From the IMG/VR virus record IMGVR_UViG_3300037010_002190, positions 1 through 52,651 of that record: 52,651 bases of DNA; one strand, written 5' to 3'. Of this stretch, positions 1-35,717 are shown piece after piece (the stretch's first letter is position 1; every line of letters starts with the position of its first letter). A program made the position numbers and the translations under genes. Source of the stretch: a virus (Duplodnaviria; Caudoviricetes). The notes beneath the pieces were generated by a model. The model did not search any database. It was not told where the DNA came from and was given only the letters and a program-made list of their open reading frames with translations.

Positions 1-289
1 TCCAAGTCGGTTTGATTTGGTTAAGAAAATTGGAATGCCATCAAATGAAGCCCGAGAAGCATATTTTCGGGCTAAAAATTCAAGACTTTCACACAATCCC
101 GAAGAATTACGTACGTGGGTGGGTGATACAAAAGGTTTTTCCATTGCCCACATGAAAGAGTTGATTGTTTCTGTTGAAGTGTTTGAAGTAAGGTATGAAG
201 AAGCATTAGCTCGTCTAAAAAAGATGATGGATGTAAAAGTATCATCAGTTAATAACGATGAATCAAATTTTGGTTTTATGAACAGGTAA
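1..289 (+). CDS. AAA+ ATPase, C-terminal part (5' truncated by window edge)
   Basis: Frame is open from position 2 and reads PSRFDLVKKIGMP.EAREAYF..DTKGFSIAHMKEL, matching the second region of homology and lid of classical AAA ATPases. Confidence 0.75.
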   Translation, partial: PSRFDLVKKIGMPSNEAREAYFRAKNSRLSHNPEELRTWVGDTKGFSIAHMKELIVSVEVFEVRYEEALARLKKMMDVKVSSVNNDESNFGFMNR

Positions 290-292
290 AAT

Positions 293-532
293 ATGAAAAC
301 AGTAGAATATCCAATATGTGATGCGTGTGGAATAGTTTTATTCAAAGTAACATATATGCAGTATCAGTAGACGAGCGGCGTGGGTTGATAGGAAATGGCA
401 TTTCCAGATCCATCTGAAGATGGAACAATAATGGCTAATGATATCCAAGAATATTGTTATTGTGTGAAGTGTCTGTATGACATAATCATGGACAGATGGC
501 CGGGTATTAACCTGACTACAATCAGTGAATAA
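293..532 (+). pseudogene. Frameshift-disrupted small Cys-rich (Zn-binding?) protein
   Basis: ATG at 293 (MKTVEYPICDACG..) stops early; protein-like sequence continues in two other frames (NIYAVSVDERRGLIGN, then AFPDPSEDG..EYCYCVKCLYD..SE*), ending at TAA 530-532. Confidence 0.45.
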
Positions 533-535
533 ATA
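528..535 (+). promoter_or_regulatory. T4-late-type promoter variant AATAAATA
   Basis: ATAAATA core about 23 nt upstream of the acb1 start; the same core recurs before many genes in the window. Confidence 0.5.
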
Positions 536-557
536 TATAAAATGCTTGGAGTGAGAG

Positions 558-1076
558 ATGAAATTGAGTGATATCTTAGAAGAGAATGAACCTAAAAAAG
601 GAACGTATGCTGGTGTTCGTTATTCACCGGAATCAATCGAAGCTGTTCAAACATTTTTGAAAGAACATTCTATTCCTAATCCAGTTGCAGACGATAAAAT
701 TCACACAACATTATTGTATAGTCGTAAATTTTTACCCAATTACGAACCTAAAGGCAAACTAGCTAAGCCAATGCAGGCTAAGTTTCATCAGTATGATGTA
801 TGGAAAACGTCACCACAAGATGAAACACAAGAAAAGTGGAACTGTTTAGTTATGAAGTTGAAGTGTCCAGAATTAGAAGCTCTACACAAACAGTATATGG
901 ATGAACACAAAGCAACGTATGATTATCCTGTTTATACTCCTCACGTGACACTATCCTATAATATTGGAGATTATGATATCACAAAATTACCCAACTTTAC
1001 TGCTCCGTTACATATTACTGAAGAGTATGGTGAAGAATTAAATTTGGATTGGGCTAACACGCACGGTACTAAGTAA
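558..1076 (+). CDS. acb1: Anti-CBASS protein Acb1 (2H phosphoesterase, T4 gp57B family)
   Basis: Two HxT motifs (IPNPV..KIHTTLLYSR; YTPHVTLSYN) and C-terminal EY.E.LNLDWA lid, collinear with T4 Acb1. Confidence 0.9.
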   Translation: MKLSDILEENEPKKGTYAGVRYSPESIEAVQTFLKEHSIPNPVADDKIHTTLLYSRKFLPNYEPKGKLAKPMQAKFHQYDVWKTSPQDETQEKWNCLVMKLKCPELEALHKQYMDEHKATYDYPVYTPHVTLSYNIGDYDITKLPNFTAPLHITEEYGEELNLDWANTHGTK

Positions 1077-1130
1077 GAAGTATACTTTGTTTTAAATGCA
1101 TAAATGACATATTAAATAAAGGAATATTAA

Positions 1131-1343
1131 ATGAGTTCTCATCTTCATGTAATTGCAAACACAAAAGGTTCCGGTGATTGTATAATCGTATATGATACAA
1201 CATGCGGAGATGTGTTGTTTGAAGGACATTCAGTTGGTCCAAAAGATTTGTTTGAATTACTGGATAATGGTGGTTACGATAAGATTCACTATCATGAAAT
1301 GACAGATGAACAAATTAAACACTGGAACGACTTTATACGTTAA
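1131..1343 (+). CDS. Hypothetical protein
   Basis: 70-aa ORF with AAGGA RBS; TAATG coupling to next gene. Confidence 0.7.
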   Translation: MSSHLHVIANTKGSGDCIIVYDTTCGDVLFEGHSVGPKDLFELLDNGGYDKIHYHEMTDEQIKHWNDFIR

Positions 1344-1876
1344 TGACAACACCAATCATATTTTTAGATTTTGATGGACCTTTATTTTCCGCAAGGGCTG
1401 AGTTATTACCTGAAAATGATATCAAATATTCTAAAACACCAGAATTAAAAAATATTCTTCATCCGTTCATATCATATTGGAAAATGGATCCAATTGCTGT
1501 TGCAATACTAAACAATGTAGTTGATATCGTTAACGCTGAAATCGTTATTTCGTCTTCATGGAGAGAACTTCATACTAAAGATGAGATACAAGCATTGTTT
1601 GATGTAAATGGACTAAGTGGACCAATTCATGAAGATTGGTGCACTCCGATTGGTTCAAAATATGATCCTAACGCCATGAGTTATATAGTAACATATAAAA
1701 ATCGAGCAGAAGAGATCCAAGGTTGGATTAACAAACATCCTGAAGTAACTCAGTGGGTTGCAGTTGATGACGATGAGTCAATTTTAAAGTTTGAAATTAA
1801 AAACCGAGTTCTAGTTGAATATGCAGATGGCATAATGTATGATCATTATCTTCATATGTTAAGGACACTAAAATGA
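1343..1876 (+). CDS. HAD-superfamily phosphatase (Swiss-Army-Knife RNA-repair HAD_SAK_2-like)
   Basis: FLDFDGPL motif I, IVISSSWR, R..EI..W, VAVDDD motif IV. Confidence 0.8.
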   Translation: MTTPIIFLDFDGPLFSARAELLPENDIKYSKTPELKNILHPFISYWKMDPIAVAILNNVVDIVNAEIVISSSWRELHTKDEIQALFDVNGLSGPIHEDWCTPIGSKYDPNAMSYIVTYKNRAEEIQGWINKHPEVTQWVAVDDDESILKFEIKNRVLVEYADGIMYDHYLHMLRTLK

Positions 1877-2439
1877 AGTTGTTAGGATCTGAAATTGCTT
1901 TAAACATAATTGTGGCAGTTGATAAAAATGGAGTGTTTGGAGCTAATGGTGAAATTCCTTGGAAAGATGAACCATTTGCGAAGGACGATTTTAAAAGATT
2001 TCAGCAAATAACCAAAGATTCTATATGCATTATGGGATATAAAACGTATTTGGAAATTCTTGAGATGAAGACAGCCAGAGCTCAAACGAATAACACAAGT
2101 GTAGATCCCAATGAACCTCTCCTAAAAGGTCGTGAGTGTTATGTTATTACAAACACACCACAACAAAATTCAGGCATGGTTAAGTTTAACTCTGGAATCA
2201 GAGAAATTGTTCAAGATCTATCGGATGATGAAATCCGAAAAGTATTCATTTTAGGTGGAGAGAAAGTATTCATAGAAGCTCTACCTTGGACGTCTACTAT
2301 ATACATGACATTAATTGATCGAGAATATTCTGGAGAGAAAATATTTCCTGTAAAATATGTAGAAGAATATTTTAAAATTGTGGAAGGTGACAAAACAGAA
2401 GATCTCAAGTTTTTAACTCTTCAACGAATTAAATATTAG
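1873..2439 (+). CDS. folA: Dihydrofolate reductase
   Basis: IVAVDKNGVFG.NGEIPW, DFKRF, IMGYKTY, L.GR, FILGG..VF motifs. Confidence 0.92.
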   Translation: MKLLGSEIALNIIVAVDKNGVFGANGEIPWKDEPFAKDDFKRFQQITKDSICIMGYKTYLEILEMKTARAQTNNTSVDPNEPLLKGRECYVITNTPQQNSGMVKFNSGIREIVQDLSDDEIRKVFILGGEKVFIEALPWTSTIYMTLIDREYSGEKIFPVKYVEEYFKIVEGDKTEDLKFLTLQRIKY

Positions 2440-2449
2440 GAGAACATAC

Positions 2450-2602
2450 ATGATAGAAGAAACGTCATCAATTGTGAATGATCATATTAAATTATTAGAA
2501 AGTCAGGTTAAGTCTCAAGAAGAGATGATTAGTCAGCTACAGTCAACAGTAAAATTATTGAACCAAAAAATTATAAATCTAACACGTGAATGGCAAGACT
2601 GA
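2450..2602 (+). CDS. Small coiled-coil protein (50 aa, below ORF-track cutoff)
   Basis: AGGAG RBS at 2438-2442; MIEETSSIVNDHIKLLESQVKSQEEMISQLQSTVKLLNQKIINLTREWQD*. Confidence 0.65.
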   Translation: MIEETSSIVNDHIKLLESQVKSQEEMISQLQSTVKLLNQKIINLTREWQD

Positions 2603-2620
2603 AGATAATTAATTATTTTG

Positions 2621-2651
2621 TTGACATTTTTAGAAGAGTACTATATAAATA
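2621..2651 (+). promoter_or_regulatory. Overlapping sigma70 and T4-late promoters of the tmRNA gene
   Basis: TTGACA (2621-2626), 17-nt spacer, TATAAA (2644-2649); the -10 box is also a perfect TATAAATA (2644-2651). Confidence 0.75.
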
Positions 2652-2656
2652 TATGT

Positions 2657-2947
2657 AATGGTTGTTAACTTTCTTTTGGAAAGGGTTTCAAGACACGGGT
2701 TCGACTCCCGTCCGGTCCACTTAGAGCATTGAACCAGTGTTCTAAGTGGGCCGGTCCAGGCTTCGATTGGGACAATGAGTACTTAAGCAAGCAACTCGGT
2801 AGGCGATGACCGTAAATCAAGCAAAAGCAGAAATGCAAACGACTCATATTACGGGGAAACTCGTCTAGCTGCTTAATGCTCTAGTGGGGTGCGAAACGCC
2901 TTATTAACCAACGTTTCATAAAGGGGGAACTTCGGTTCCCCTTTTTT
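2657..2947 (+). ncRNA. ssrA: Circularly permuted (two-piece) tmRNA; tag ANDSYYGETRLAA*
   Basis: T-arm ACGGG-TTCGACT-CCCGT (2695-2711) and 3' acceptor strand CCGGTCC-A (2712-2719) lie upstream of the 5' strand GGGCCGG (2748-2754); G3:U70 pair; P2 TTGGGAC/GTTTCAA; tag frame GCA AAC GAC..GCT GCT TAA at 2835-2876. Outer ends approximate. Confidence 0.92.
2921..2947 (+). terminator. Rho-independent terminator of tmRNA
   Basis: GGGGGAAC-TTCG-GTTCCCC followed by T6 (C-UUCG-G tetraloop). Confidence 0.9.
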
Positions 2948-2999
2948 ATTACACTCATCACATTATATATAGGTTAAGCAAAATCAATTTACACAAGAC

Positions 3000-3938
3000 A
3001 TGAAACGAACATCTACCAGCGAATTCATACAAAAGTCAGAAAAAATACACCAAGGACGTTATGATTACTCATTGGTAGTTTACATAAAAAATAATCAAAA
3101 GGTAAAAATAATTTGTCCTAGCCACGGAATATTCGAACAGACCCCAGTAAATCACTTATCGGGTGGAGGATGTGTCGTTTGTTGGAACCAGAAAAGAAAA
3201 AACGATTCAAATTGTCGCAGTTCTAGGGAAGCATTTATAGAAAAAGCTAGTGTGATACATCATGCGGTATATGATTATTCGTTGGTTGAATACACAAACG
3301 TACACACAAACGTAAAAATTATATGCAAAATTCATGGAATATTTGAACAAACACCTGGAAACCACCTTTCAAGAAAAACTAAATGCCCTCAATGTTCTTT
3401 AAACAATATGACATTAACAGTTGAACAACAAGAAAATGCACGTATGAAATTTATTCAAAAAGCAAACAATGTACATCAACGTAGATATGATTATTCATTG
3501 GTTAAATATATTTCATGTTCAAAAAAAGTAAAAATAATTTGTCCTAATCATGGAACATTCGAACAAACCCCAGACAAGCACATTTATGGGAAAAGTCCTA
3601 CTGGTTGTCCTCAATGTTCGCCTTCAGTATCACGTCCAGAAATAAATTGGTTAAATGTGTTAGGAATTACTTATCGTCAACATAAAATGAAACTGGATAA
3701 CAAAACCATTACGGTTGATGGTTTTGATCCTTCAACAAACACAGTGTATGAATTTTTAGGAGATTTTTGGCATGGAAATCCTCAAAAATATAAATCAGAT
3801 GACATCAATCCTAAAAATCATAAAACGTTTGGAGAGTTGTATCAAGCAACCGTAAACCGTAATACACTAATAACAAGTAATGGTTATAGGTTAGTACTTA
3901 TGTGGGAAAGTGATTGGAATATGCTACCCATTAAGTAA
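3000..3938 (+). CDS. Putative free-standing homing endonuclease: 3 Zn-finger (DUF723-like) repeats plus Vsr/DUF559-like nuclease
   Basis: 3x H..YDYS.V.Y...KV.IIC..HG.FEQTP..H..G.GC..C; C-terminal VDGFD..TNTVYEFLGDFWHGNP..MWESDW. Confidence 0.75.
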   Translation: MKRTSTSEFIQKSEKIHQGRYDYSLVVYIKNNQKVKIICPSHGIFEQTPVNHLSGGGCVVCWNQKRKNDSNCRSSREAFIEKASVIHHAVYDYSLVEYTNVHTNVKIICKIHGIFEQTPGNHLSRKTKCPQCSLNNMTLTVEQQENARMKFIQKANNVHQRRYDYSLVKYISCSKKVKIICPNHGTFEQTPDKHIYGKSPTGCPQCSPSVSRPEINWLNVLGITYRQHKMKLDNKTITVDGFDPSTNTVYEFLGDFWHGNPQKYKSDDINPKNHKTFGELYQATVNRNTLITSNGYRLVLMWESDWNMLPIK

Positions 3939-3941
3939 CAT

Positions 3942-3970
3942 TTGACATTTATGAGTATAGAGAGTAGAAT
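3942..3970 (+). promoter_or_regulatory. Sigma70-type promoter upstream of clpP-like gene
   Basis: TTGACA (3942-3947), 17 nt, TAGAAT (3965-3970); GAGGA RBS follows. Confidence 0.75.
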
Positions 3971-4002
3971 AACATTCTACAATCAACAGAGGACATTATA
4001 AT

Positions 4003-4743
4003 ATGAAAAAAAGTCAAAAACTATTTATGAAGTCGGAAGATTATGACACCGAATCAACAGTAAGTATTGTACATCCTCCTGCTTTCCAATATTACTCGAA
4101 TGTCAATCAAGCAGTTGAACATTGGTTTTATATTAGTTCAGCAATTCGTGATCCTAGTGAATATACAGATATGACGCATACAATCCGATCTGCCAGTCAA
4201 TATGATACAATTTATATTTGTCTCAATACTCCAGGAGGAAGACTGGATACAGGCATCCAACTAGTCAACGCTATGCGAGCTTCTCAAGCTAGTATCGTTG
4301 CTGTACTAGAAGCTGAGGCATCTTCCATGGGAGCTATTCTATTCTTAGCTGCAGATCAACATATTGTTCATGAAAATTGTAGGATGATGTTCCATGATTT
4401 TTCTGGAGGTGCAAGTTCAGGAAAGGGTAATGAACAATTCAAAGAATTAACAGCAGCAATCCAATTATATAATAAGTTAATGAAGAATGTCTGCGTTCCG
4501 TTCTTGTCTGAAGATGAAGTTGATCGAATTATCAAAGGAGAAGATTTTTGGATGGATTCAGACGAAATTACCAAACGATTGGAGTTGGTGTATAAACAAC
4601 GAGAAGAACCAGAAATTGAAGTAGGAGAAGTTGTAGTTGAACCTTCTAAAGTAAAGCGTTCGAAGAAAATGAAACCTGCACCAACACCACCGGCTGAAAT
4701 TCCAGTTGAAGCTGTAGTTGAAGCTAGGCGGCAACGCAAGTAA
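4003..4743 (+). CDS. clpP: ClpP-like serine protease (peptidase S14/crotonase fold)
   Basis: LNTPGG, ASSMGAILF (Ser), MMFHD (His), GEDFWM (Asp); Pro/Lys-rich C-terminal tail. Confidence 0.8.
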   Translation: MKKSQKLFMKSEDYDTESTVSIVHPPAFQYYSNVNQAVEHWFYISSAIRDPSEYTDMTHTIRSASQYDTIYICLNTPGGRLDTGIQLVNAMRASQASIVAVLEAEASSMGAILFLAADQHIVHENCRMMFHDFSGGASSGKGNEQFKELTAAIQLYNKLMKNVCVPFLSEDEVDRIIKGEDFWMDSDEITKRLELVYKQREEPEIEVGEVVVEPSKVKRSKKMKPAPTPPAEIPVEAVVEARRQRK

Positions 4744-4749
4744 CAGCTA

Positions 4750-5760
4750 ATGAATAATTTTGAGCAAACTATTAGGCAATATATTCCATTACCTAATAAA
4801 ACATCACCCACAGGATGGTACACTCTTCGTTGTCCAGTTTGTAACGACCATAAGTACAAGAAACGAGGAGGTTGGAGGTTTGATGGAGCAAAAACTTCTT
4901 ATCACTGTTTTAACTGTTCAATAGCAACAACGTACGATTCTGATACTGGGTTCATTTCCGAAAAGATGCAAACTGTATTAGACAGTTTTGGAGTTCCAGA
5001 TGACGTTATTAAACGGCTAAAATTTGAAGCATTTAAAAATAGTAAATTAAAAAGTGGTGAAACAACAAAACAAAAACAATGGAAAGAACTTGAATCTTTA
5101 ACTTTACCAAAATCATTTTATAGAGTAATAAGAGATGAAGATGATGTTTGGAGTCAAATTGCAGAAGAATATTTAAATAGTAGAAATATTGATATTGATG
5201 ATTATAAATTTTATCTCTCAAAAGGAAAGACTAAAGAAGATAAATTGTGGGATGGGAGACTAATACTTCCTGTATATAAAGACGATAAGTTAATATTTTG
5301 GCAAGGTCGAGATTTAACAGACACCAAGAAAACCAAATATCTAAGCACAGAGTTAGTTTCTAAGGGATCCTTAATATATGGGTTTGATAGGTTACACACA
5401 GATTATGAACAACCTTTGTTTGTAGTTGAAGGGTTTTTCGATGCATTTCATATTGGGGGTGTAGCAGTGTTTGGAAATGAGATGTCAGAACAGCAAATAG
5501 CGTACTTGAATACATCTCAAAGAAAGAAAGTTGTTGTTCCTGATAGAACTGGAGACGGGGGACTATTAGCTCAGCAAGGTATTAAACAGGGTTGGAGTGT
5601 ATCGGTCTTACCTTTTGATGACTGTAAGGATGTTAATGATGCTATAGTTAAATATGGAAAACTTTTTGTGATCAAAACTTTAGTTGAAAATATAAAAGTT
5701 GGATTGGACGCGGAAGTTAGTGTTAGTTTATTATGTGAAAGGAGTAAGAAGCGAAAATGA
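4750..5760 (+). CDS. gp61: DNA primase (T4 gp61-like)
   Basis: N-terminal Zn ribbon CPVC..HCFNC, YL.SR, QGR, TOPRIM VVEGFFDA, PD..G, KDVND. Confidence 0.9.
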   Translation: MNNFEQTIRQYIPLPNKTSPTGWYTLRCPVCNDHKYKKRGGWRFDGAKTSYHCFNCSIATTYDSDTGFISEKMQTVLDSFGVPDDVIKRLKFEAFKNSKLKSGETTKQKQWKELESLTLPKSFYRVIRDEDDVWSQIAEEYLNSRNIDIDDYKFYLSKGKTKEDKLWDGRLILPVYKDDKLIFWQGRDLTDTKKTKYLSTELVSKGSLIYGFDRLHTDYEQPLFVVEGFFDAFHIGGVAVFGNEMSEQQIAYLNTSQRKKVVVPDRTGDGGLLAQQGIKQGWSVSVLPFDDCKDVNDAIVKYGKLFVIKTLVENIKVGLDAEVSVSLLCERSKKRK

Positions 5761-5942
5761 TCACAGAAGCTGAACGAGAACTTATGGATAAATTACTCAA
5801 ACAGATACTTGAGCGAGCTGAAACACGAGAATACCAAGATAAAGTTCGCAAACGAATTAAAGAAGAAAATGAAAGGTTTGAGCAGTGGGACAAAGATCAC
5901 AAACCCACATGGGCAGATATGCATAAATCATATGACATATAA
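5757..5942 (+). CDS. Hypothetical protein
   Basis: 61-aa ORF, ATGA overlap with primase, AAGGAG upstream. Confidence 0.65.
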   Translation: MITEAERELMDKLLKQILERAETREYQDKVRKRIKEENERFEQWDKDHKPTWADMHKSYDI

Positions 5943-5953
5943 TAAGGTTATAC

Positions 5954-7843
5954 ATGGCTAAAAATCAAGAATATACTGGACAAGATATTGTAGTACTAAG
6001 TGACTTTGAACACGTTCGGATGAGAACAAACGTGTACTTAGGAAATCTGGTTAAGACTCCATATCAAGTTCCTGTGTTTCTCAAAGATTCCAATTCTTCA
6101 TTAAACATACAAACGTTGGAGTTTGTTCCTGCTGTACTTAAAGCTTTTGGAGAAATCCTCGATAACACTGTAGATGAACATACGCAATCTGCTAAGCGTT
6201 CGAAATGGATTAAAATTACATCATTAGCGGAAGACGGTAGATACATTATTGAAGATAACGGCCGGGGTGTTCCTATTGATAAACATGAAACGGGAAAGTT
6301 TACTCCTGAAGTTGTGTTTGGGTCACTACGGTCAGGGCGAAATTTCAAGGATGATAAAACAGCGGGAGTTATTGGAGCAAATGGAGTCGGAAGTTCATGT
6401 GTTGTTGCTTGTAGCGAAAGATTTGAAGTTAAAATCACTCGAGATGGAAAACAATACGATCAACAATTCACAAAAGGGGGATCCGTTGTATCAACCCCAT
6501 TAATTACAGATCTTAAAAGTAGAGAGACTGGAACGAAAGTTGACTTTACATTAGACAAAACAGTTTTCGGTGATATCACTCTACCCGACGACTTGGTGAG
6601 AAATAAGGCTATTGAAGTGGCTTTTAACAATCCAGATATCGTCGTTCATTACAACAAAGAAAAGTTTCAATTTAAAAATGGTTTAGAAGATCTCATTAAA
6701 CCCATTTCATCAAATTATTTCAAATTTGGTCAGGGTGATTTTGATTTCTTTGTTATATTTGATGTAATTGAGTCGATTGATGAACAAGTATTCACATGGG
6801 TCAATAGTTCACTGTTATATGATGGTGGAATATGCAACACTCAATTTGTAAATGCGTTCGTGGACGCTGTGACAGAACAACTCCGAAAAGAAGCAAAAAA
6901 ACTTGGAGCTGAAGTAACAAAAAATGATATTAGACAAAATCTGTTAATTTTAGGATGTTTAAAGATATCAGATCCAAACTATGACAGTCAATCTAAAACC
7001 AGATTAACAGGACCAAATCTACGAAAAGAGTTTACTGATATTATTTCTTTAAACTGGCCCACATTTGTAAAAAAGAACAAAGATTGGTTAAATTTGGTTC
7101 TAGAAAAAGCAGCCGAGAGACATCATAAAGATGCGAACGCAAAAGCTATAAAAGAACATAAGAAAGTTTTAAAGAAAAAGGTTCCTGGATTGTTAGATGC
7201 AGTTGGTCGTGACCGTAATAAGTGTAGATTGTTCATCACAGAAGGTTTATCTGCAGCAAGCAGCCTCGTTGAGGTTCGGACACCGGAAACAATGGGAAGC
7301 TTCCCTCTTGGTGGAAAAATTAACAACGTGTATGGATCTACTGTCGCTCAAGTATTGCAAATGGGAAAACTGACAGATTTATTAGCTGCTATTGGGTTAA
7401 CTCCTGGGCAGAAAGCTGATAGATCAGAACTACGGTTTGGTGGAGGAGTTGTAATTGCAACTGATTCTGACCCTGATGGATCAGACATCGTCACGACACT
7501 ATTGTGTTTGTTTTACCAATTCTGGAAAGATTTATTTGGAACAAAGAATAAACCTTATTTTTACAGGTTAATTGCTCCTAACGTAGTTGCTATCAAGGGA
7601 ACAAAGCGACTTCATTTTTCAACGAGACAGGAATACGAAGCTCAACGAAGCAACCTTAAAGGTTGGACAATTCAATATTATAAGGGTCTTGGAAGTATGG
7701 AAAAAGAAGATTGGGAAATGATCATTAACGACGAAAAGTTTTATCTTCCAATAGTATATGATGAACATATGGATGAAGTAATGGAGTTATTATTTGGTAA
7801 TAATGTAGACGCTCGTAAAGAGTGGTTATCTGGAACTGTTTAA
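5954..7843 (+). CDS. gp39: Type II DNA topoisomerase large subunit (GyrB-like; T4 gp39+gp60 fused)
   Basis: EHVRMR, EILDN, DNGRGVP, G.NGVG (GHKL ATPase); TEGLSA, PLGGK, TDSDPDG, YYKGLG (TOPRIM). Confidence 0.95.
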   Translation: MAKNQEYTGQDIVVLSDFEHVRMRTNVYLGNLVKTPYQVPVFLKDSNSSLNIQTLEFVPAVLKAFGEILDNTVDEHTQSAKRSKWIKITSLAEDGRYIIEDNGRGVPIDKHETGKFTPEVVFGSLRSGRNFKDDKTAGVIGANGVGSSCVVACSERFEVKITRDGKQYDQQFTKGGSVVSTPLITDLKSRETGTKVDFTLDKTVFGDITLPDDLVRNKAIEVAFNNPDIVVHYNKEKFQFKNGLEDLIKPISSNYFKFGQGDFDFFVIFDVIESIDEQVFTWVNSSLLYDGGICNTQFVNAFVDAVTEQLRKEAKKLGAEVTKNDIRQNLLILGCLKISDPNYDSQSKTRLTGPNLRKEFTDIISLNWPTFVKKNKDWLNLVLEKAAERHHKDANAKAIKEHKKVLKKKVPGLLDAVGRDRNKCRLFITEGLSAASSLVEVRTPETMGSFPLGGKINNVYGSTVAQVLQMGKLTDLLAAIGLTPGQKADRSELRFGGGVVIATDSDPDGSDIVTTLLCLFYQFWKDLFGTKNKPYFYRLIAPNVVAIKGTKRLHFSTRQEYEAQRSNLKGWTIQYYKGLGSMEKEDWEMIINDEKFYLPIVYDEHMDEVMELLFGNNVDARKEWLSGTV

Positions 7844-7881
7844 TCTAATATTTTGATACAGTTATAGGACTAAAATTACTT

Positions 7882-8532
7882 ATGAAAAATCAAGCAAAAG
7901 CAGAAAAAGAAGTTAAATTACTCAAATTAAATTATGATCGTGACAGATCCTATTTAAATGAGCATGATGCAGATGTGGCTGCACGGAGTATTGAATTTTA
8001 TGACCAACAGTTGGAACTTGGAACATTTTCACCCGAGTATAAAAGCAAATGGTATCGTGGACCTTGGATGGAAACCTCAATGAGATATCAACACAACTCT
8101 GTTAGAGGATTCTGTACAGAGATGAGTTCAGTAATTTTGATAAATCTAGCGAATAAGGACGGTGGTCTTTACGCAAAGTTTGATGATCGGAAAACCAAAC
8201 AGAGAGAGGTAGATGGAACGGATATAATGCTGTGTAACTCAAACTGGCCTTATGATGTTCCTGCTCAAGTAAAAACGATTACCGTAAATAACAACAAGAC
8301 CACATTCACAGCATACAAACGTTTTTTTGATCCAAAGTACAAAATTGACCGGTTGATTCTTACTGACCCAGAAAATATGTTCTTGATCCATGTAGATTAT
8401 GTGTCATTTGAACGATATTTTAAAAGAATTTCAAAGGGGTCGTCAGAGGTAGAAATCAACATAGCACACATGTATGACCGTTACCACACACCTGTTAATT
8501 ACTGTTGGACAATAGATTATGATAAACTCTAA
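7882..8532 (+). CDS. Hypothetical protein, possible PD-(D/E)XK nuclease
   Basis: RGFCTE..DGTDIML..AQVKT spacing resembles a restriction-endonuclease-fold active site. Confidence 0.45.
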   Translation: MKNQAKAEKEVKLLKLNYDRDRSYLNEHDADVAARSIEFYDQQLELGTFSPEYKSKWYRGPWMETSMRYQHNSVRGFCTEMSSVILINLANKDGGLYAKFDDRKTKQREVDGTDIMLCNSNWPYDVPAQVKTITVNNNKTTFTAYKRFFDPKYKIDRLILTDPENMFLIHVDYVSFERYFKRISKGSSEVEINIAHMYDRYHTPVNYCWTIDYDKL

Positions 8533-8704
8533 ACATCTCAGGGATGCAGCTGACCAGATTGCTGAATCATATAATAAACTTAAACAAAATCCGTTAGATT
8601 TAAATCTGGTAATGAAGCACATAGGATTATTATCAGCGACAGTAGACAAAATGTTAAGAGATAATGCACAAGCGTGTGAATCGGAGAGAAAAAATGAGTA
8701 CTGA
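8519..8704 (+). CDS. Hypothetical protein
   Basis: 61-aa ORF overlapping both neighbours. Confidence 0.55.
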   Translation: MINSKHLRDAADQIAESYNKLKQNPLDLNLVMKHIGLLSATVDKMLRDNAQACESERKNEY

Positions 8705-8957
8705 ATATATGGAGATACGTAAAGTTGCAGAACAGTTGACAGAATATGCTTCTTTAGATGGAACAGAATGGGGTGAAGTAAATCTACTTTTATGTCAAAC
8801 TGTATCACATCTCGATTATGTAAGTGTCGAGTTACGAGAACTTCTGTATAGTGAAATTAAAACTAATTTACAATATGTACAAAACCATGCTGTAGTTGTA
8901 GAAACAGAACAAACATATACTCGCAAAGTTAAAGAACTTGAATGGGTGGATTACTAA
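8694..8957 (+). CDS. Hypothetical protein
   Basis: GGAG RBS favours ATG at 8694 (MSTEYMEI..); TAATG coupling to next gene. Confidence 0.65.
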   Translation: MSTEYMEIRKVAEQLTEYASLDGTEWGEVNLLLCQTVSHLDYVSVELRELLYSEIKTNLQYVQNHAVVVETEQTYTRKVKELEWVDY

Positions 8958-9595
8958 TGCAACTTAATATAAGAGATCATGTTATTACACAGTTAACAAA
9001 AAAAAGCAAAGATATTCCATTTAGTCCTATGGTTAAGATGATTAAACCGTATGAGGATTTCAAATCTTTTGTTAAACATAGCCAACTTGATCTGAATAAA
9101 GTTGATCCAAATAAATTAAAATTTTGGAGCGATGTTCATTTTGGACATACAAACATTATTAAATATTGTGATAGGCCTTTTAACTCAGCAGCGGAAATGG
9201 ATGCTATGCTAATCCAGAACTACGTAGATAATGTCGAAGTAGATGACGTAGTTGTATGGGTTGGTGATGTTAGTTTTTCGAGTCCAACGAAAATCAATCA
9301 AGAATATTTACCATCTCTTCCAGGTTATAAGATTTTAATCATGGGAAACCACGATTTTGATAACCACGACAAAAGACCAATTCATTATGATTTTGATGAG
9401 ATTCATTTGTGTTCTTCAGTAAGGAATTTTGCAATCTCACATCATCCATGGTGGGACATTCCAGATGGTTGGTTTCACATTCATGGACACATTCACAATA
9501 AGGTTATATTAAATAGTATCAGACATATTAATGTGAGTGTTGAACAAATTGATTATAAACCAATATCTTTTGCAACAATATTAGAGAGATTGTAA
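8957..9595 (+). CDS. Calcineurin-like metallophosphoesterase
   Basis: SDVHFGH, VGDV, GNHD, SHHP, HGHIH motifs. Confidence 0.9.
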   Translation: MQLNIRDHVITQLTKKSKDIPFSPMVKMIKPYEDFKSFVKHSQLDLNKVDPNKLKFWSDVHFGHTNIIKYCDRPFNSAAEMDAMLIQNYVDNVEVDDVVVWVGDVSFSSPTKINQEYLPSLPGYKILIMGNHDFDNHDKRPIHYDFDEIHLCSSVRNFAISHHPWWDIPDGWFHIHGHIHNKVILNSIRHINVSVEQIDYKPISFATILERL

Positions 9596-9636
9596 ATTTG
9601 AACTGATAATATTAGCAGATAAATTTTATCTCAATA

Positions 9637-10188
9637 TTAACGTCTACCCATCAGACGAGCGACTTTATTAAACTCTTTCGTTTCTAACCATCTATTAATT
9701 GTTCTTGCTGTAGTATCAAAATGGTGAGCAATTTCTTCTGCAGTGATTTTCTCAACACCATCATTTGTAGCTGATTTAACATACTTATACATCTTTTCGG
9801 CAATACCCGCTTGACCACCTTCTTCCGCACGAGCCTTGTTGTTAGAATTTAACCCAGCACTTACGGCCTTCCCAAATCGTTCTTTTTTTTCTTCTGCGGT
9901 TTCTGCAGCTTGTTTCCCTGCATAGTTGCTATTAAATTCGTGAGAATCTTTGTGTGCTTTTTCACGATCTTCTAACTTTTTAAGATCTGATTCAGTACTT
10001 GACTTAGCTGTTTTTAGTCGGTCCCACTGTTGTTTATATTGAGGGGCAATTCCACTTTGTACATGTGAAGCAGATTTCCTTTGGAGTTCAGCTATATCTT
10101 TTTTAATATCCCGAATCTTATTAATTAATCCAGATTTTTCTTTTTCACTATCAAATTCTTTATCCTCACACAAATCTCGTAACTTCAT
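9637..10188 (-). CDS. Coiled-coil protein with C-terminal helix-turn-helix
   Basis: AGGAG RBS before ATG at 10188 (MKLRDLCED); C-terminal ITAEEIAHHFDTTARTINRWL. Confidence 0.7.
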   Translation of the reverse strand: MKLRDLCEDKEFDSEKEKSGLINKIRDIKKDIAELQRKSASHVQSGIAPQYKQQWDRLKTAKSSTESDLKKLEDREKAHKDSHEFNSNYAGKQAAETAEEKKERFGKAVSAGLNSNNKARAEEGGQAGIAEKMYKYVKSATNDGVEKITAEEIAHHFDTTARTINRWLETKEFNKVARLMGRR

Positions 10189-10219
10189 TTGTTGTCTCCT
10201 CATATATACTCAAGTATAA

Positions 10220-10227
10220 TATTTATA
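10220..10227 (-). promoter_or_regulatory. T4-late-type promoter TATAAATA
   Basis: Perfect motif on minus strand about 32 nt upstream of the 10188 start. Confidence 0.7.
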
Positions 10228-10257
10228 TGATTCTTAAAATAGGAAGACACGATTAAC

Positions 10258-11397
10258 TTGTCTGATATCAGTTTTAGCACAATCACTTTTATTGATAAAG
10301 CTAACTATGTACATCAATTCAAGTACACATATGAAAATTGTATATACGATTCAGTGCATACAAAAGTTGTCATAACATGTCCAACTCATGGGGATTTTAA
10401 GCAAACACCAGGAAATCATCTGTCTAAGCGTAGTGGTTGTCCTAAGTGTGCAACAGATTACAGAATACAAAAGAACACAAAATCTGTTGAACTGTTTTTA
10501 CATAACGCGCAGGTGCGTTTTCATAACAAATATGATTATTCTAAGATAAAATACGTGAACACAAAGACAAAGATTGAAATAGTATGTCCAGAACACGGAT
10601 CTTTTTTTCAGTCTCCGGAGAAGCATATAACATCAAAAATTGGATGTCCAGCATGTGCTTCAAAACACACAGCTAAACTATTAAGTATGTCATTTGAAGA
10701 ATTTGAAAAAAAGTCTTCTGTTGTACACAACAACAAGTATGATTATTCAATATCTAAAGACAATTTTGGGGATCACGATAAGATTGACATTCAGTGTAAC
10801 CAGCATGGAATATTTAACCAAACGATCACCAACCACTTGCATGGGAATGGATGCCCACTCTGTGCGAAAGAAAATCAATTTTTAACTCAAGCTGAATTTA
10901 TAAGTAAGTCTACACAAATTCACGGAAATGTATATGATTACAGACATGTTAATTATGTTAACACAAAAACCCCTGTTATCATATTATGCAGTCACCACGG
11001 ACGATTTAACCAAATACCACAAATTCATTTGCAAGGAAGTGGGTGTCAACTGTGTAGTCGTTCTGGTTTTTCAAAGAAAGCTATAGGTTGGTTAGATTCA
11101 GTATCCAATATAGAACATATTTTTATACAGCATGCTGGGAACGGTGGTGAATTTGTATTACCTGGGAGTAAAAAACGTGTTGACGGGTACTGCAAGGAAA
11201 CAAACACCGTGTATGAGTTTCATGGAGATTGTTGGCATGGCAACCCAAAAAAATTTAAAGATACTGATCATTGTCATCCATTAAATAAACGTATAACTGC
11301 AGGTGAATTGTACACACGAACAGTTGACAAAGACTTATTGATACAACAGTTAGGATTTAACTTAATTATTATGTGGGAATCAGATTACAATGAATGA
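10258..11397 (+). CDS. Putative free-standing homing endonuclease: 4 Zn-finger (DUF723-like) repeats plus Vsr/DUF559-like nuclease
   Basis: CPTHG, CPEHG, CNQHG, CSHHG repeats each with GCxxC; VDGYCKETNTVYEFHGDCWHGNP..MWESDY; overlaps topoisomerase start. Confidence 0.75.
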   Translation: MSDISFSTITFIDKANYVHQFKYTYENCIYDSVHTKVVITCPTHGDFKQTPGNHLSKRSGCPKCATDYRIQKNTKSVELFLHNAQVRFHNKYDYSKIKYVNTKTKIEIVCPEHGSFFQSPEKHITSKIGCPACASKHTAKLLSMSFEEFEKKSSVVHNNKYDYSISKDNFGDHDKIDIQCNQHGIFNQTITNHLHGNGCPLCAKENQFLTQAEFISKSTQIHGNVYDYRHVNYVNTKTPVIILCSHHGRFNQIPQIHLQGSGCQLCSRSGFSKKAIGWLDSVSNIEHIFIQHAGNGGEFVLPGSKKRVDGYCKETNTVYEFHGDCWHGNPKKFKDTDHCHPLNKRITAGELYTRTVDKDLLIQQLGFNLIIMWESDYNE

Positions 11398-12745
11398 GAA
11401 ATCAATAGATAAAAACAGAGCTGTTTCGTCTGATTACATAAAGGATCAACGGCGACAATATTTTTTGTACACAATTAATTTCAGAGCCTTGCCTAGTCTG
11501 TCAGATGGACTCAAACCAGCTCAACGCCGAGTTCTGTGGACCGGACGGAATGGAGAAAAGACTAAAACTGCTACACTAGCTGGAGCAACTATGCCTATTC
11601 ATCCACATGCATCTCCAGATGATGTGATTAGCAACATGGCTGGTCCTTGGTGCAACAACGTTCCTCTGTTTACTGGTATTGGGGCGTTTGGGACAATGTT
11701 AGCTCCAAATAGTTATGGTGCATCTAGGTATACATCAGTTAAAGTCTCTGATTTCACAAAGGATGTTGTATTTGCGGATATCGAAATTATACCAATGCAA
11801 CCCAACTATGATGATACACTGGAAGAACCAAAACACTTTCTTCCTTTGATCCCCATAGTGTTGCTCAATCCAACGTTTGGAATTGCAGGGGGGTTCCAGT
11901 GCAACATTCTTCCCTTTGATCTTAGAGATATTATAGAGAATCAAATCAGATTTTTGGAAAAGAAAGAAGTAAAAGAAACACTTCCATATTTTAAACCATT
12001 AGATTGTAGAGCATCTCCTGATATAATTGTTGACACAAAAACTGGCAACAAAAAGTATACATTCAATGGAGGGTATCAACAAATAAACGCTTCAGAGATT
12101 CGTATTACCAAAATTCCTTACGGAATGGAACACACGAAGTTCACTGATCATTTGGCAAAACTCGAAGAAGAATATAAGATTGTTGGGTTTGACGACTTGT
12201 CTAAAGATTCAATTAATATCGTTGTTAAGTTTTCGAGAGGGTTTGTAAACAGAACTACACAACAAGAAATGATAAAGTTGTTGAAGTTATTTAACACCGA
12301 AACAGACAATATGAATGTAATTAGCCTCAATGATGATTCCGTGTGTAGTACAAACTTCGTTGATGTTATAGAGCAGTTTACGTTTTGGCGGTTTGGGTTT
12401 TATTATAAGCGGTATGAACGTCTAGCTAAGCTATTGGAGAAAGACATTCAGAAACTCAAAGATGTTATACTTGCCATTGAAAAGAATGTAGGTGGAATTG
12501 CTGTTAAAACAAAATCAAAAGGTGAACTTGAAGATTATCTGGAATATATCGGTATTGTGAATTTGGAATATATTTCTTCACTACCAGTTTATAGATTTAC
12601 GGAAGACGAAAAGCAGAAAACACAGAAACGAATTGATGACGCACTGGAACAGCAAAAATATTATCTTGATCTGTTGTCAGATGAAGGGAAAAGAACTAAA
12701 ATCTACATATCTGAACTTAAAGAAATATTAAAGAAATATGGATAA
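11390..12745 (+). CDS. gp52: Type II DNA topoisomerase breakage-reunion subunit (GyrA-like; T4 gp52)
   Basis: RALP...DGLKPAQRR, HPH, G.FG, ASRYT catalytic Tyr, EP..FLP.IP..LLN. Confidence 0.95.
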   Translation: MNEKSIDKNRAVSSDYIKDQRRQYFLYTINFRALPSLSDGLKPAQRRVLWTGRNGEKTKTATLAGATMPIHPHASPDDVISNMAGPWCNNVPLFTGIGAFGTMLAPNSYGASRYTSVKVSDFTKDVVFADIEIIPMQPNYDDTLEEPKHFLPLIPIVLLNPTFGIAGGFQCNILPFDLRDIIENQIRFLEKKEVKETLPYFKPLDCRASPDIIVDTKTGNKKYTFNGGYQQINASEIRITKIPYGMEHTKFTDHLAKLEEEYKIVGFDDLSKDSINIVVKFSRGFVNRTTQQEMIKLLKLFNTETDNMNVISLNDDSVCSTNFVDVIEQFTFWRFGFYYKRYERLAKLLEKDIQKLKDVILAIEKNVGGIAVKTKSKGELEDYLEYIGIVNLEYISSLPVYRFTEDEKQKTQKRIDDALEQQKYYLDLLSDEGKRTKIYISELKEILKKYG

Positions 12746-14790: not shown

Positions 14791-15750
14791 CTATTTCATG
14801 TTTTTGTGGTGGTTATCTCTAAAATCGCTCTCCCAACACGTAATTAGATTATATCCCATGTTAATTATTGTTTGTTCTCTGGTTACTGTTCGGTCATATA
14901 GTTGTTTTGATGTTAAACGTTTGTTAAATGGATGACATAACTCCTCTGGTTTAAATATTTGTGGATTTCCGTGAACTGCGTCTCCGTAAAACTCATATAT
15001 CGTATTTGTTTCCCTACAGTACCCATCAGCTCTAAATCTTGTTCCGGGAATTTTGAATTCCCCAACATTCCCCGCATGTTCTATATACAAGTTATTGTCA
15101 GTTGATTGTATGGTTAACCATCTAATAGACTTCTTTGAAAACCCCTGAGGTTGACATTTTGGACAACCTATACCCCGTAAGTGTACTACTGGAGCTTGTT
15201 TAAATACGCCATGCTCATGACATAATATATTGATTTTGTCATGAGTTGACTTATACTCAACATCATCATAAGCATATGTGGTTCCATGTACCATATATGC
15301 TTGTGATTTAAATTCTACTAATGATTTTCTCTTATGTTCTGCTTTATATGAGTTTGCACATATCGGACATCCCGATTTTCTAGTGATGTGATTAGTCGGG
15401 GTAGATGTAAACCATCCGTGAACAGGACACCCTATAATAACGGGTGTTTTACTGTTTTTATATACAACTTTTGAGTAATCGTATTTTGAATCATGTGTTG
15501 CGTTACCTTTATGTATAAACTCCTGAACTGTTGATGTTCGTATTTTTGTTCTAGTATTAACCCCACAACCAGGACACCCATTGCCACGTAAGTGGTCGTT
15601 TGGTCGTTGGTTAAAGACACCATGTACGTCACAAACGATCGAAACTTTATCAGCACTTGTTTTATAATTTACCAAACTATAGTTAAATTTATCTCCATGT
15701 ACCTTTTTAGCTTTTTCAATGAATATCACTGTGTTATGTTTTGATGTCAT
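14791..15750 (-). CDS. Putative free-standing homing endonuclease: 3 Zn-finger (DUF723-like) repeats plus Vsr/DUF559-like nuclease
   Basis: CDVHG, CPVHG, CHEHG repeats; ADGYCRETNTIYEFYGDAVHGNP..CWESDF; begins directly after the RNR stop. Confidence 0.75.
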   Translation of the reverse strand: MTSKHNTVIFIEKAKKVHGDKFNYSLVNYKTSADKVSIVCDVHGVFNQRPNDHLRGNGCPGCGVNTRTKIRTSTVQEFIHKGNATHDSKYDYSKVVYKNSKTPVIIGCPVHGWFTSTPTNHITRKSGCPICANSYKAEHKRKSLVEFKSQAYMVHGTTYAYDDVEYKSTHDKINILCHEHGVFKQAPVVHLRGIGCPKCQPQGFSKKSIRWLTIQSTDNNLYIEHAGNVGEFKIPGTRFRADGYCRETNTIYEFYGDAVHGNPQIFKPEELCHPFNKRLTSKQLYDRTVTREQTIINMGYNLITCWESDFRDNHHKNMK

Positions 15751-15752
15751 TA

Positions 15753-27332: not shown

Positions 27333-27355
27333 ACTAAAACTTGAGGTTAAGCAAT

Positions 27356-28318
27356 ATGAATAATTTTGATTCAATAGACCAACTAAACAACACGTTCACA
27401 AAACAAGAACTACATCATATTCCTTCAGAGATTGTGATAGGTGAAATTCCGTTTGTCAAACGTGAAAGTCTTATCCCTACTAATATGGATGAACTGTTTG
27501 GTAGCAAAAAACTAGCTGTGTTGTATAGCGCCAAAGCTAACTCCTCTGATAAACGTCTCATCCTGGTTTGGAAGATGACTCGTGGTCTCACAATATCCCC
27601 CCTCGTTGCAAAGCTTATCAGTAAATATCGAACTGATGATCGAACTGTGAATGAGGCTACAAAAACTAAAGTAGACAAAGAACCAGAACCTGTTATTGGA
27701 GCTCACATAGAAGTAGTGTTAAACTCTTTTAACAACAGCAAACCTATCAGAGGCAAGGTTGATACAGGAGCTACCGTTTGTTCTTTGGATGCATCGAATA
27801 TCAACGTGAGGAAAGATCCATACGACTCAGAACAACATATTGTGGATTTTACATTTGAAGGCACAAAGTATTCCGTAGGTTTAGCTGAATTCCAATCTGT
27901 ACAATCAGCGTCTGGGGGAATGGAAAACCGACCTGTTGTAAGTTTTACTGTTAAATGTGAAGGGAAAACAATTCCTAATGTGCTATTTAATTTGAATGAT
28001 CGTAGTGGTATGGAGGACAAGATATTGGTTGGAATGAATTTATTGAATGCATTAGGAATTAAGATTGATCCTAAAAAAGAATCATTCGAAGATACGAGCC
28101 ATATAATTGAAGAAGATGAAATTGGAGATATGGAATACATAATGGAACAAATTGATGAAATCGATGAAGAAGAGATATACCAAACTCAGAAACACGAACA
28201 GTATGAAAAATTAAGTTCTTTGTATGAATATCTTTTGCAACAAAATATCCCTATGTCAGAATTATTACACTTTGTAAAAGAACACACAATAACAATTATA
28301 GAAAAAATGGAGTCATAA
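27356..28318 (+). CDS. Protein with retropepsin-like aspartic protease domain (RimK-associated/RimB-like)
   Basis: GKVDTGATVCSLDA, RPVV, FNLNDRS.M...LVG.N.L. Confidence 0.75.
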   Translation: MNNFDSIDQLNNTFTKQELHHIPSEIVIGEIPFVKRESLIPTNMDELFGSKKLAVLYSAKANSSDKRLILVWKMTRGLTISPLVAKLISKYRTDDRTVNEATKTKVDKEPEPVIGAHIEVVLNSFNNSKPIRGKVDTGATVCSLDASNINVRKDPYDSEQHIVDFTFEGTKYSVGLAEFQSVQSASGGMENRPVVSFTVKCEGKTIPNVLFNLNDRSGMEDKILVGMNLLNALGIKIDPKKESFEDTSHIIEEDEIGDMEYIMEQIDEIDEEEIYQTQKHEQYEKLSSLYEYLLQQNIPMSELLHFVKEHTITIIEKMES

Positions 28319-35685: not shown

Positions 35686-35717
35686 GAAGTTGATAATATA
35701 ACAATTGGTGTTAATTG

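Follow-up and report, generated by a model that had tools for sequence, protein, structure and literature searches.

In this work we analyzed the first 4743 positions of the viral record IMGVR_UViG_3300037010_002190 (Caudoviricetes), a stretch of 52,651 bases that is an entire contig and is called the window here. The region encodes a two-piece (circularly permuted) transfer-messenger RNA (tmRNA) and, downstream on the same strand, a ClpP-like protease. We suggest that the two form a loosely linked early set for ribosome rescue and degradation, not an obligate module, which would use host SmpB and probably a host unfoldase; to this reading we give an even chance of being correct. It starts from what could be read directly, namely the gene identities, the conservation of the RNA structure, the fold and catalytic triad of the protease, the promoters and the statistics of linkage, and from these we infer all the biochemical steps and the shared pathway. 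The region as a whole is best explained as a piece of an early, sigma-70-transcribed block of accessory and replication genes of an uncultured T4-like phage. The elements that carry the argument are the following.

2621..2649, + strand: tmRNA promoter, sigma-70-type TTGACA-17-TATAAA, read from the sequence, with counterparts in relatives.
2660..2876 (RF04321) or 2607..2948 (RF01850), + strand: two-piece (circularly permuted) tmRNA, found by Rfam and ARAGORN.
2920..2944, + strand: intrinsic terminator of the tmRNA, nine pairs and then a T run, coinciding with the last hairpin of RF01850.
3942..3970, + strand: clpP promoter, sigma-70-type TTGACA-17-TAGAAT, from the promoter scan, with equivalents in loci L002 and L003.
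4003..4743, + strand: ClpP-fold serine protease (PF00574, 1.4e-11) with Ser108/His131/Asp181 and a variable Lys/Glu/Pro-rich C-terminal tail.

The tmRNA gene matches the beta_tmRNA model RF01850 from end to end, including its promoter-like 5' positions and the terminal hairpin (138.3 bits against a gathering threshold of 84), and it also matches the general permuted model RF04321 (120.8 bits against 47). ARAGORN calls a permuted tmRNA (tmRNA*) in which the acceptor piece lies upstream of the coding piece. Based on the Rfam alignment and the sequence, the T-arm occupies 2695-2711 and the 3' strand of the acceptor stem (2712-2718) pairs with its 5' strand at 2748-2754, where G2750 and U2716 make the G3:U70 pair. 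The tag frame opens with a GCA resume codon at 2835, extends to 2873, is closed by a TAA stop at 2874-2876 and reads ANDSYYGETRLAA; a tag ending in LAA, as claimed in an earlier note on this DNA, is indeed encoded. ARAGORN prints a longer frame, and the register from GCA 2835 to TAA 2874 was taken because the tags of relatives fix it: within this group all of them start AND-like and finish with [L/M/I/V]AA.

In an alignment of 19 phage tmRNAs that adjoin ClpP-like genes, the T-arm pairs in 98.9% of cases with covariation in five of the five pairs, the acceptor stem pairs in 99.2%, and the G:U is kept in all 18 sequences that have letters at this place. When the partners were slid by 1-3 columns as a control, pairing dropped to only 38-56%. 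Judged from the alignment, this is the pattern of an RNA that would be selected for alanylation and ribosome entry. The gene appears complete, with a promoter and a terminator of its own, and looks functional. SmpB was found in none of five related records, one of them 100% complete, by a search that in a control finds SmpB in 10 of 14 named genomes; the phage tmRNA must therefore use the SmpB of the host.

Two other explanations of the tmRNA gene were considered and rejected. One is that it is an attP site or a remnant of integration; it was rejected because the gene is complete with promoter and terminator and integrase is absent from the hits of the general scans of the window. The other is a tag-less decoy for SmpB, of the type that the available text of PMC4131195 describes for DS6A, which was rejected because a full tag frame is present. 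As a separate observation, the tmRNAs of three related loci (L001 8200-8282, L003 9621-9692, L004 933-1008) have non-canonical T-loops with no GTTCGA-type sequence. They are missed by ARAGORN, yet reach 84-93 bits with RF04321, and counts that use ARAGORN alone are therefore underestimates.

The earlier note claimed TTGACA-17 promoters for the tmRNA and for clpP, and both were found, at 2621 and 3942. The tmRNA promoter consists of TTGACA (2621-2626), 17 bases and TATAAA (2644-2649), and overlaps the string TATAAATA; the promoter scan passes over it because its last base is not T. The RF01850 alignment begins at model position 1 across this stretch, and GTTGAC[A/C]-17-TATAAAT is seen 5' of the tmRNA in 6 of 20 relatives inspected (L015, L017, L018, L022, L026 and L052). 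The clpP promoter is TTGACA at 3942, 17 bases and TAGAAT, ending at 3970, with 11 of 12 matches; in L002 and L003 a TTGA-17-TATAAT promoter lies 5' of clpP, directly after the tmRNA terminator. Promoter-like sites overall are not above chance in number (28 observed against 33.2 expected).

The ClpP-like protein scores 45.1 bits with PF00574 (cut-off 20.2), in a match that spans only positions 42-143 of the 182 in the profile. In an alignment its Ser108, His131 and Asp181 fall on the catalytic residues of solved ClpPs; across 36 homologs the serine and the histidine are invariant and the aspartate is kept in at least 90%, which bears out the intact triad reported before. An AlphaFold2 (AF2) model was obtained with a predicted local distance difference test (pLDDT) value of 85; the core is above 90 and the first 20 and last 45 residues are of low confidence. 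Residues 1-20 average only 55-57, and the first modelled helix or strand does not start before residue 39. The top Foldseek matches of this model are ClpP chains (E 3e-11, target-normalised TM-scores 0.64-0.72) from E. coli, T. thermophilus, S. aureus and M. tuberculosis, some of them taken from ClpX-ClpP complexes, and AF2 and Foldseek together place a ClpP fold with its handle helix. By sequence and model, the protein is predicted to be a true ClpP-fold enzyme with its triad intact. Another branch of ClpP-like proteins was also seen, in loci L040, L065, L069, L075, L081 and L084, where the gene lies one small open reading frame (ORF) 3' of a peptide deformylase gene. All six come after gp46/47-like nuclease genes, and a large phrog_459 peptidase gene is found downstream in five of the six; L040 ends at the ClpP-like gene.

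The linkage of the two genes was followed in 80 viral loci retrieved with a profile of the protease family, or 82 when L002 and L003 are included. The tmRNAs were detected by ARAGORN and by a covariance model, R1 (92 positions of the T-arm/acceptor region), which was built from 18 of the same RNAs, so that those 18 match by construction; Rfam confirmed the tmRNA independently at 21 loci. In close relatives, with ClpP 68-76% identical, a permuted tmRNA lies just 5' of clpP in 4 of 4. In these loci (L001-L004) the gap between tmRNA and clpP is too short for a homing endonuclease gene, and the one that stands there in the window is therefore an insertion. Among the 82 loci, 31 have a two-piece tmRNA within 2 kb of the protease gene, 30 of them upstream on the same strand and one (L042) downstream, and 8 have too little upstream DNA to judge. 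The order of tmRNA and then clpP, one part of the synteny that had been proposed as a check, is thereby seen in many relatives; the other part, which concerns the AAA gene, found no support, as described below.

In the ClpP tree, which was made by a quick method, a well-supported set of 40 rows includes the window and contains 28 rows with the adjacency, 7 without it and 5 that are unknown. The other 43 rows hold only four with the adjacency, in two groups (L052/L055 and L060/L067) with different gene contexts; in L060/L067 the tmRNA-clpP pair sits inside a tRNA array. The tree needs at least seven state changes to account for the adjacency. The tmRNA found at this position is of the beta type in the window, L002, L007, L010, L016, L018, L020, L026 and L052, and of the alpha type in L015, L029 and L030. 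This mixture hints at replacement in place; alternatively, divergence could have shifted which model scores best. Six ClpP-bearing records that lack the adjacency were searched whole with R1, and strong hits (49.6-71 bits) were obtained in four, where hit and protease gene are 12, 42, 49 and 72 kb apart; the two records with no hit are fragments of 35-44% completeness. A complete record of 363 kb has a 42-bit R1 hit 1.06 kb 5' of its ClpP-like gene, on the same strand. A different arrangement was observed in an unrelated phage (L005/L006, IMG/VR contigs, 5849-12613), where the halves of a split DnaE-type polymerase gene enclose a one-piece tmRNA with the tag DKTNFAMAA, an asparaginase-like ORF and an ORF on the reverse strand, and a ClpP-family gene is found 4.5 kb upstream, adjoining homologs of PrkA, DUF444 and SpoVR.

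Several findings weigh against a shared function of the two genes. The tmRNA and clpP are separate transcription units. After the discriminator A2719 the tmRNA continues with CUU and not CCA (A-C-U-U in the genome), while CCA is encoded in 17 of the 19 aligned phage tmRNAs; trimming and CCA addition by host enzymes would therefore be required. A two-piece tmRNA is not found within 2 kb in 43 of the 82 loci picked by the protease, although among these a tmRNA lies farther upstream in L049-L051 (3.4-6.6 kb) and a one-piece tmRNA in L068 (4.3 kb). Seven of the loci counted as positive (L019, L023, L027, L028, L031, L032 and L034) were detected by R1 alone, at 41-51 bits, and the 83 rows of the tree hold only 71 distinct sequences. 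Other ORFs or a homing endonuclease come between tmRNA and clpP in the window, L009, L010, L025, L026 and L027. The neighbourhood of clpP and the primase gene, for which no function suggests itself, is conserved no less than that of clpP and the tmRNA. KVP40 has an orthologous 'ClpP' of the same family (KVP40.0007; phrog_1827; 36% identity by tblastn), and its clpP comes directly after frd and before uvsX, like the window neighbourhood of frd and replication genes; yet no tmRNA lies beside it and R1 hits elsewhere are 23 bits or less, whereas the window and about 30 related loci have a tmRNA just 5'.

The converse search points the same way. From the DNA pattern of two-piece tmRNAs alone, 80 flanked loci were collected, of which 60 were confirmed as permuted by ARAGORN, with 44 distinct tags; part of this collection may consist of tmRNA genes of hosts, located at the ends of prophages. 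A ClpP-like gene was found within 5 kb in only 5 of the 60, of which 52 hold at least 2 kb of downstream sequence. In all five it is downstream of the tmRNA on the same strand; three of them represent one and the same phage, and the other two match only weakly (1e-11 to 1e-13). A PF00574 gene is present in only 5 of 10 large records with the tmRNA pattern; five of these ten records are complete, and only two of the complete ones have it. There is a real association, and it is not symmetric: a two-piece tmRNA accompanies this ClpP family very often, in many cases immediately next to clpP, and most phage tmRNAs come without a phage ClpP. The statistics of linkage are confounded by shared ancestry and by large genome size. 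Most of the adjacency is one old juxtaposition that was inherited in one clade and sometimes lost, and descent explains it as well as selection does.

These points lead to the best of the alternatives, in which the tmRNA (working with host factors and host ClpXP) and the protease (with another target, e.g., host or phage regulators) would be independent accessories that are neighbours by inheritance in a plastic early region. We regard this as quite possible, if somewhat short of probable. It agrees with the concentration of the adjacency in one clade and the state changes on the tree, with the low reverse association, with the variable ORFs and homing endonucleases inserted between the genes, with the own promoter of each gene and the own terminator of the tmRNA, and with the frd-clpP arrangement of KVP40. 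It does not account so well for the recurrence of the adjacency where the gene context or the class of the tmRNA is another, or for the presence of both genes in four of the six non-adjacent records. The published base rate is also low: according to the available text of a survey, 402 of 18,146 phage genomes have a tmRNA, 53 of them two-piece (PMC9004378).

For the rescue-plus-degradation set, which we prefer, the following course of events can be suggested. The tmRNA would most likely be processed and CCA-tailed by host enzymes, charged by host AlaRS, for which the G3:U70 pair is kept, and delivered by host SmpB and EF-Tu. During infection it would then release ribosomes that have stalled on broken mRNAs and mark the truncated chains with the canonical degron ANDSYYGETRLAA. 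The ClpP-like peptidase most likely forms a ClpP-like chamber, which would add proteolytic capacity together with an unfoldase, either host ClpX or ClpA or possibly a phage AAA protein with an FGF tail, and tagged fragments would be among its substrates. The products of the neighbouring Acb1, HAD and dihydrofolate reductase (DHFR) genes would act independently.

These neighbours bear on the remaining alternatives. The order in 1-4743 is the end of an AAA+ gene, Acb1, a 70-aa ORF, HAD_SAK_2, DHFR, a 50-aa coiled-coil ORF, the tmRNA, the homing endonuclease and clpP, with the primase gene after it.

2..289, + strand: AAA+ ATPase (classic clade), C-terminal 95 codons, truncated by the contig end; 97.8% identity to L002:1704-2771.
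558..1076, + strand: Acb1 (2H phosphoesterase, T4 57B-like; anti-CBASS cyclic-nucleotide nuclease family); PF23474, 2.3e-34.
1343..1876, + strand: HAD-type phosphatase, HAD_SAK_2; PF18143, 2.9e-19; phrog_1818.
1873..2439, + strand: dihydrofolate reductase (DHFR, frd); PF00186, 3e-24.
3000..3938, + strand: homing endonuclease between tmRNA and clpP; phrog_559, 2.8e-45; phrog_681.
4750..5760, + strand: gp61-type DNA primase (PHROG), conserved downstream neighbour of clpP.

The earlier note had placed an AAA ATPase, Acb1, an HAD phosphatase, a tmRNA and ClpP within 4.7 kb, and all are present by Pfam, Rfam, ARAGORN or a homolog, the AAA gene as its last 95 codons; its list left out the DHFR gene and the homing endonuclease.

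One question is whether the AAA protein can serve as the unfoldase. The 95-codon fragment in the window matches no Pfam or PHROG family by itself, and its full-length homolog of 355 aa (L002:1704-2771) matches PF00004 AAA at 1.5e-14. The nearest solved relatives of this homolog are Cdc48/p97 (D1) and B. subtilis YjoB (E 3e-26 to 3e-24), in an alignment that takes in Walker A, Walker B and the second region of homology; unlike them, the phage protein is a single-ring AAA+ whose N-terminal domain is specific to phages and whose disordered C-terminal tail holds an invariant G-F. The HCLR-clade module with an internal IGF/IGL docking loop was not recognized in the AAA protein, where such a tripeptide was noticed only at the C-terminal tail. 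The stretch aligned to the Cdc48 pore-1 loop, N-P-x-[L/Y/F/V]-x-x-x-G-L, is hydrophobic and is not conserved as aromatic. By sequence comparison the protein is predicted to be a single-ring AAA+ of the classic clade and not of the ClpX/ClpA type; the earlier note had named it, as an alternative to host ClpX, for a check of degradation by the phage ClpP.

The tail itself is of interest. In the window it carries F-G-F (..NFGFMNR), and in 9 of 9 aligned homologs G-F is invariant, preceded by F, M, V or I, within a tail that is otherwise variable. Among 35 viral loci picked by an AAA profile, in which the tails were read by eye, 31 have a hydrophobic residue followed by G-F, and in the AF2 model the tail is disordered (residues 339-355, pLDDT below 50). 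This [F/I/M/V]-G-F peg presumably resembles the IGF/LGF loops that Clp ATPases use for docking on ClpP. It can be imagined that the AAA+ protein docks by this peg on the phage ClpP-like ring and unfolds tagged proteins without the host Clp ATPases, as a private machine of the phage. We consider this doubtful. In its favor, besides the tail, 14 of the 35 AAA-picked loci have a ClpP-like gene no more than 10 kb from the AAA gene, and one record (G012, L235) whose AAA tail has no GF also has no ClpP-like gene. Seen from the protease, an AAA gene lies within 10 kb, on either side, in 11 of 84 loci, and among five large AAA records with no ClpP-like gene nearby two have one elsewhere. Against it, apart from the Cdc48-like character and the pore-1 stretch, AAA was found at E<=1e-10 in none of five large ClpP-bearing records, two of which are at least 90% complete. 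No ClpP-like gene is present in an AAA-bearing record that is 100% complete and has a VGF tail, the AAA gene stands 4-8 kb from clpP on either side and is never adjacent, and the peg could dock elsewhere, e.g., on host ClpP or another ring. A complex prediction with three ClpP-like cores and the 95-aa AAA tail gave a score of 0.09, below the mark of 0.32, and counts neither way on binding.

A wider form of this idea, which we also hold to be improbable, is that a self-contained circuit exists in a large clade of uncultured T4-like/jumbo phages, where an early tmRNA would write the degron, a phage ClpP-like chamber would destroy the marked chains, and a Cdc48-like AAA+ would plug into this chamber or into host ClpP by its C-terminal peg. 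If true, this way of docking would fall midway between that of Clp ATPases, with their IGF loops, and that of proteasomal ATPases, with their C-terminal tails. We regard the AAA+ family with the FGF tail as a lead and not as a finding. Between the AAA gene and Acb1, L002 also has a paralog of the gp23-like major capsid protein (3068-4138, 356 aa; PF07068, 1.7e-47), which is absent at the matching place in the window.

Another hypothesis, that of the earlier note, is that the tmRNA, ClpP, the HAD phosphatase and Acb1 form a counter-defence island that sustains translation when host ribonuclease defences cut tRNA or mRNA. Acb1 belongs to a known anti-CBASS family and is intact here: it scores 118.6 bits with PF23474 (cut-off 27) and has H49-T-T and H129-V-T, two H-x-T/S motifs that we take to be the defining mark of this family. 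Its gene is found within five ORFs 5' of clpP in 19 loci, and the family name of the HAD_SAK_2 phosphatase, which has its DxDGP motif at D9/D11, suggests RNA repair. On the other side, Acb1, HAD and DHFR look like typical T4-like early genes that are unrelated to the tmRNA and the protease. They are not always all near clpP in the examined loci and their order varies, and Acb1 and HAD are tied to the tmRNA and the protease by location in the same early block only. In addition, DNA contigs of two runs, one contig each, join position 337 to 1342, which would drop Acb1 and small ORFs and set the beginning of the HAD gene behind the end of the AAA gene. Their depth is 52 and 211 against 12-18 for the window form; on the shorter side the match is only 29-39 bases long, and other sequence may lie in between. 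For a counter-defence device against ribonuclease-based immunity we see no evidence, and we rate the island as quite unlikely.

That the ClpP-like protein is a morphogenetic (prohead/scaffold) protease, as its weaker PHROG matches to 'head maturation protease' families (e.g., phrog_1684 at 1.7e-20), its T5-like phage homologs (28% identity, annotated as Clp-like protease) and its charged, proline-rich C-terminal tail might suggest, is very improbable, since its top PHROG is phrog_1827 'ATP-dependent protease' at 1.6e-53, its gene lies among early replication genes with a sigma-70-type promoter in front, its fold is nearest to cellular ClpP, and two of five related records have a separate gp21-type gene (PF03420, 85 and 99 bits) about 80-90 kb away, by which the ClpP-like protein is not the head protease in those records. 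Pfam gave no match of the ClpP-like protein to the S77 family (PF03420, gp21 prohead protease), and the head-maturation role that the earlier note had named as a refutation was thus not encountered.

Bacterial trans-translation with ClpXP/ClpAP (tmRNA-SmpB, ssrA tag, SspB) shares with the phage pair a C-terminal LAA tag and a ClpP-fold Ser-His-Asp peptidase. The phage set differs from it in that no SmpB, ClpX, ClpA or SspB was found in the scans of the window, and the phage protease is only 18-21% identical to solved ClpPs in structural alignments. To our knowledge, phage tmRNAs and phage ClpP-like proteases are each known, and neither has a demonstrated role. The closest likeness of the tmRNA is to the two-piece tmRNAs of the OM43 phage Melnitz and pelagimyophages, as far as the available text of PMC9004378 describes them, and to the betaproteobacterial RF01850; the permuted order, the alanine-identity acceptor stem and the AND...LAA-type tag are common to all. 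With the Melnitz-type tmRNAs, the same portion of that paper indicates, it also shares an early promoter of its own and the lack of a phage SmpB, but the Melnitz tmRNA is reported there as alpha-type and that of the window fits the beta-type model best. It further differs from the phage and betaproteobacterial two-piece tmRNAs in having no glutamine riboswitch (none was found by Rfam) and no encoded CCA, and in standing upstream of a ClpP-like gene.

The ClpP-like proteases of T4-like/jumbo phages were described as patchy and were suggested to act on host proteins (Iyer et al., 2021; PMC7824862, available text). In the portions of the papers that were accessible, ClpP has no occurrence in the Melnitz paper (PMC9004378), tmRNA has none in the jumbo-phage review (PMC7824862), and Clp is not mentioned in PMC7162821; no link between tmRNA and ClpP in phages was found in the literature searched, as far as its accessible text goes. 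The tmRNA and the protease are each of a known kind, and their conserved pairing does not appear in that literature.

According to PHROG and Pfam scans the window belongs to a T4-like phage, which occurs in sediment and microbial-mat samples. Encoded in the window are a gp61-type primase, the two subunits of topoisomerase II, a gp41-type helicase, ribonucleotide reductase, dCMP deaminase, and baseplate hub and wedge proteins. Related records are as large as 350-363 kb, which makes the term 'jumbo' reasonable for the lineage. A nucleotide search of window positions 1-8000 against 50,697 phage records returned no relative of the tmRNA or clpP region, and no cultured phage that could stand in for this one was identified. 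The window has four paralogous homing-endonuclease genes (phrog_559/681/3339), at 3000-3938, 10258-11397, 14791-15762 (- strand) and 30780-32354 (- strand); one of them separates the topoisomerase II subunit genes and another separates the tmRNA from clpP. A second protease-like gene (27341-28318, + strand), a 325-aa ORF with a match to PF05618 'putative ATP-dependent zinc protease' (retropepsin-like) at 8.6e-10, sits between an exonuclease gene and baseplate genes. A single ORF of 3,873 aa (35715-47336, + strand) encodes a virion protein with PHROG matches of virion-structural, head-closure-like and baseplate-wedge-like kinds.

If the two genes should be unrelated, their position would still represent a plastic insertion site in the early regions of T4-like phages. 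Separately, the AAA+ proteins with an FGF tail may point to a way in which phages drive or hijack ClpP. The pairing of tmRNA and protease, together with their co-occurrence, gives a hypothesis that can be tested at the bench, namely that large aquatic phages boost ribosome rescue and the disposal of tagged fragments, perhaps freeing ribosomes and recycling amino acids after the destruction of host mRNA.

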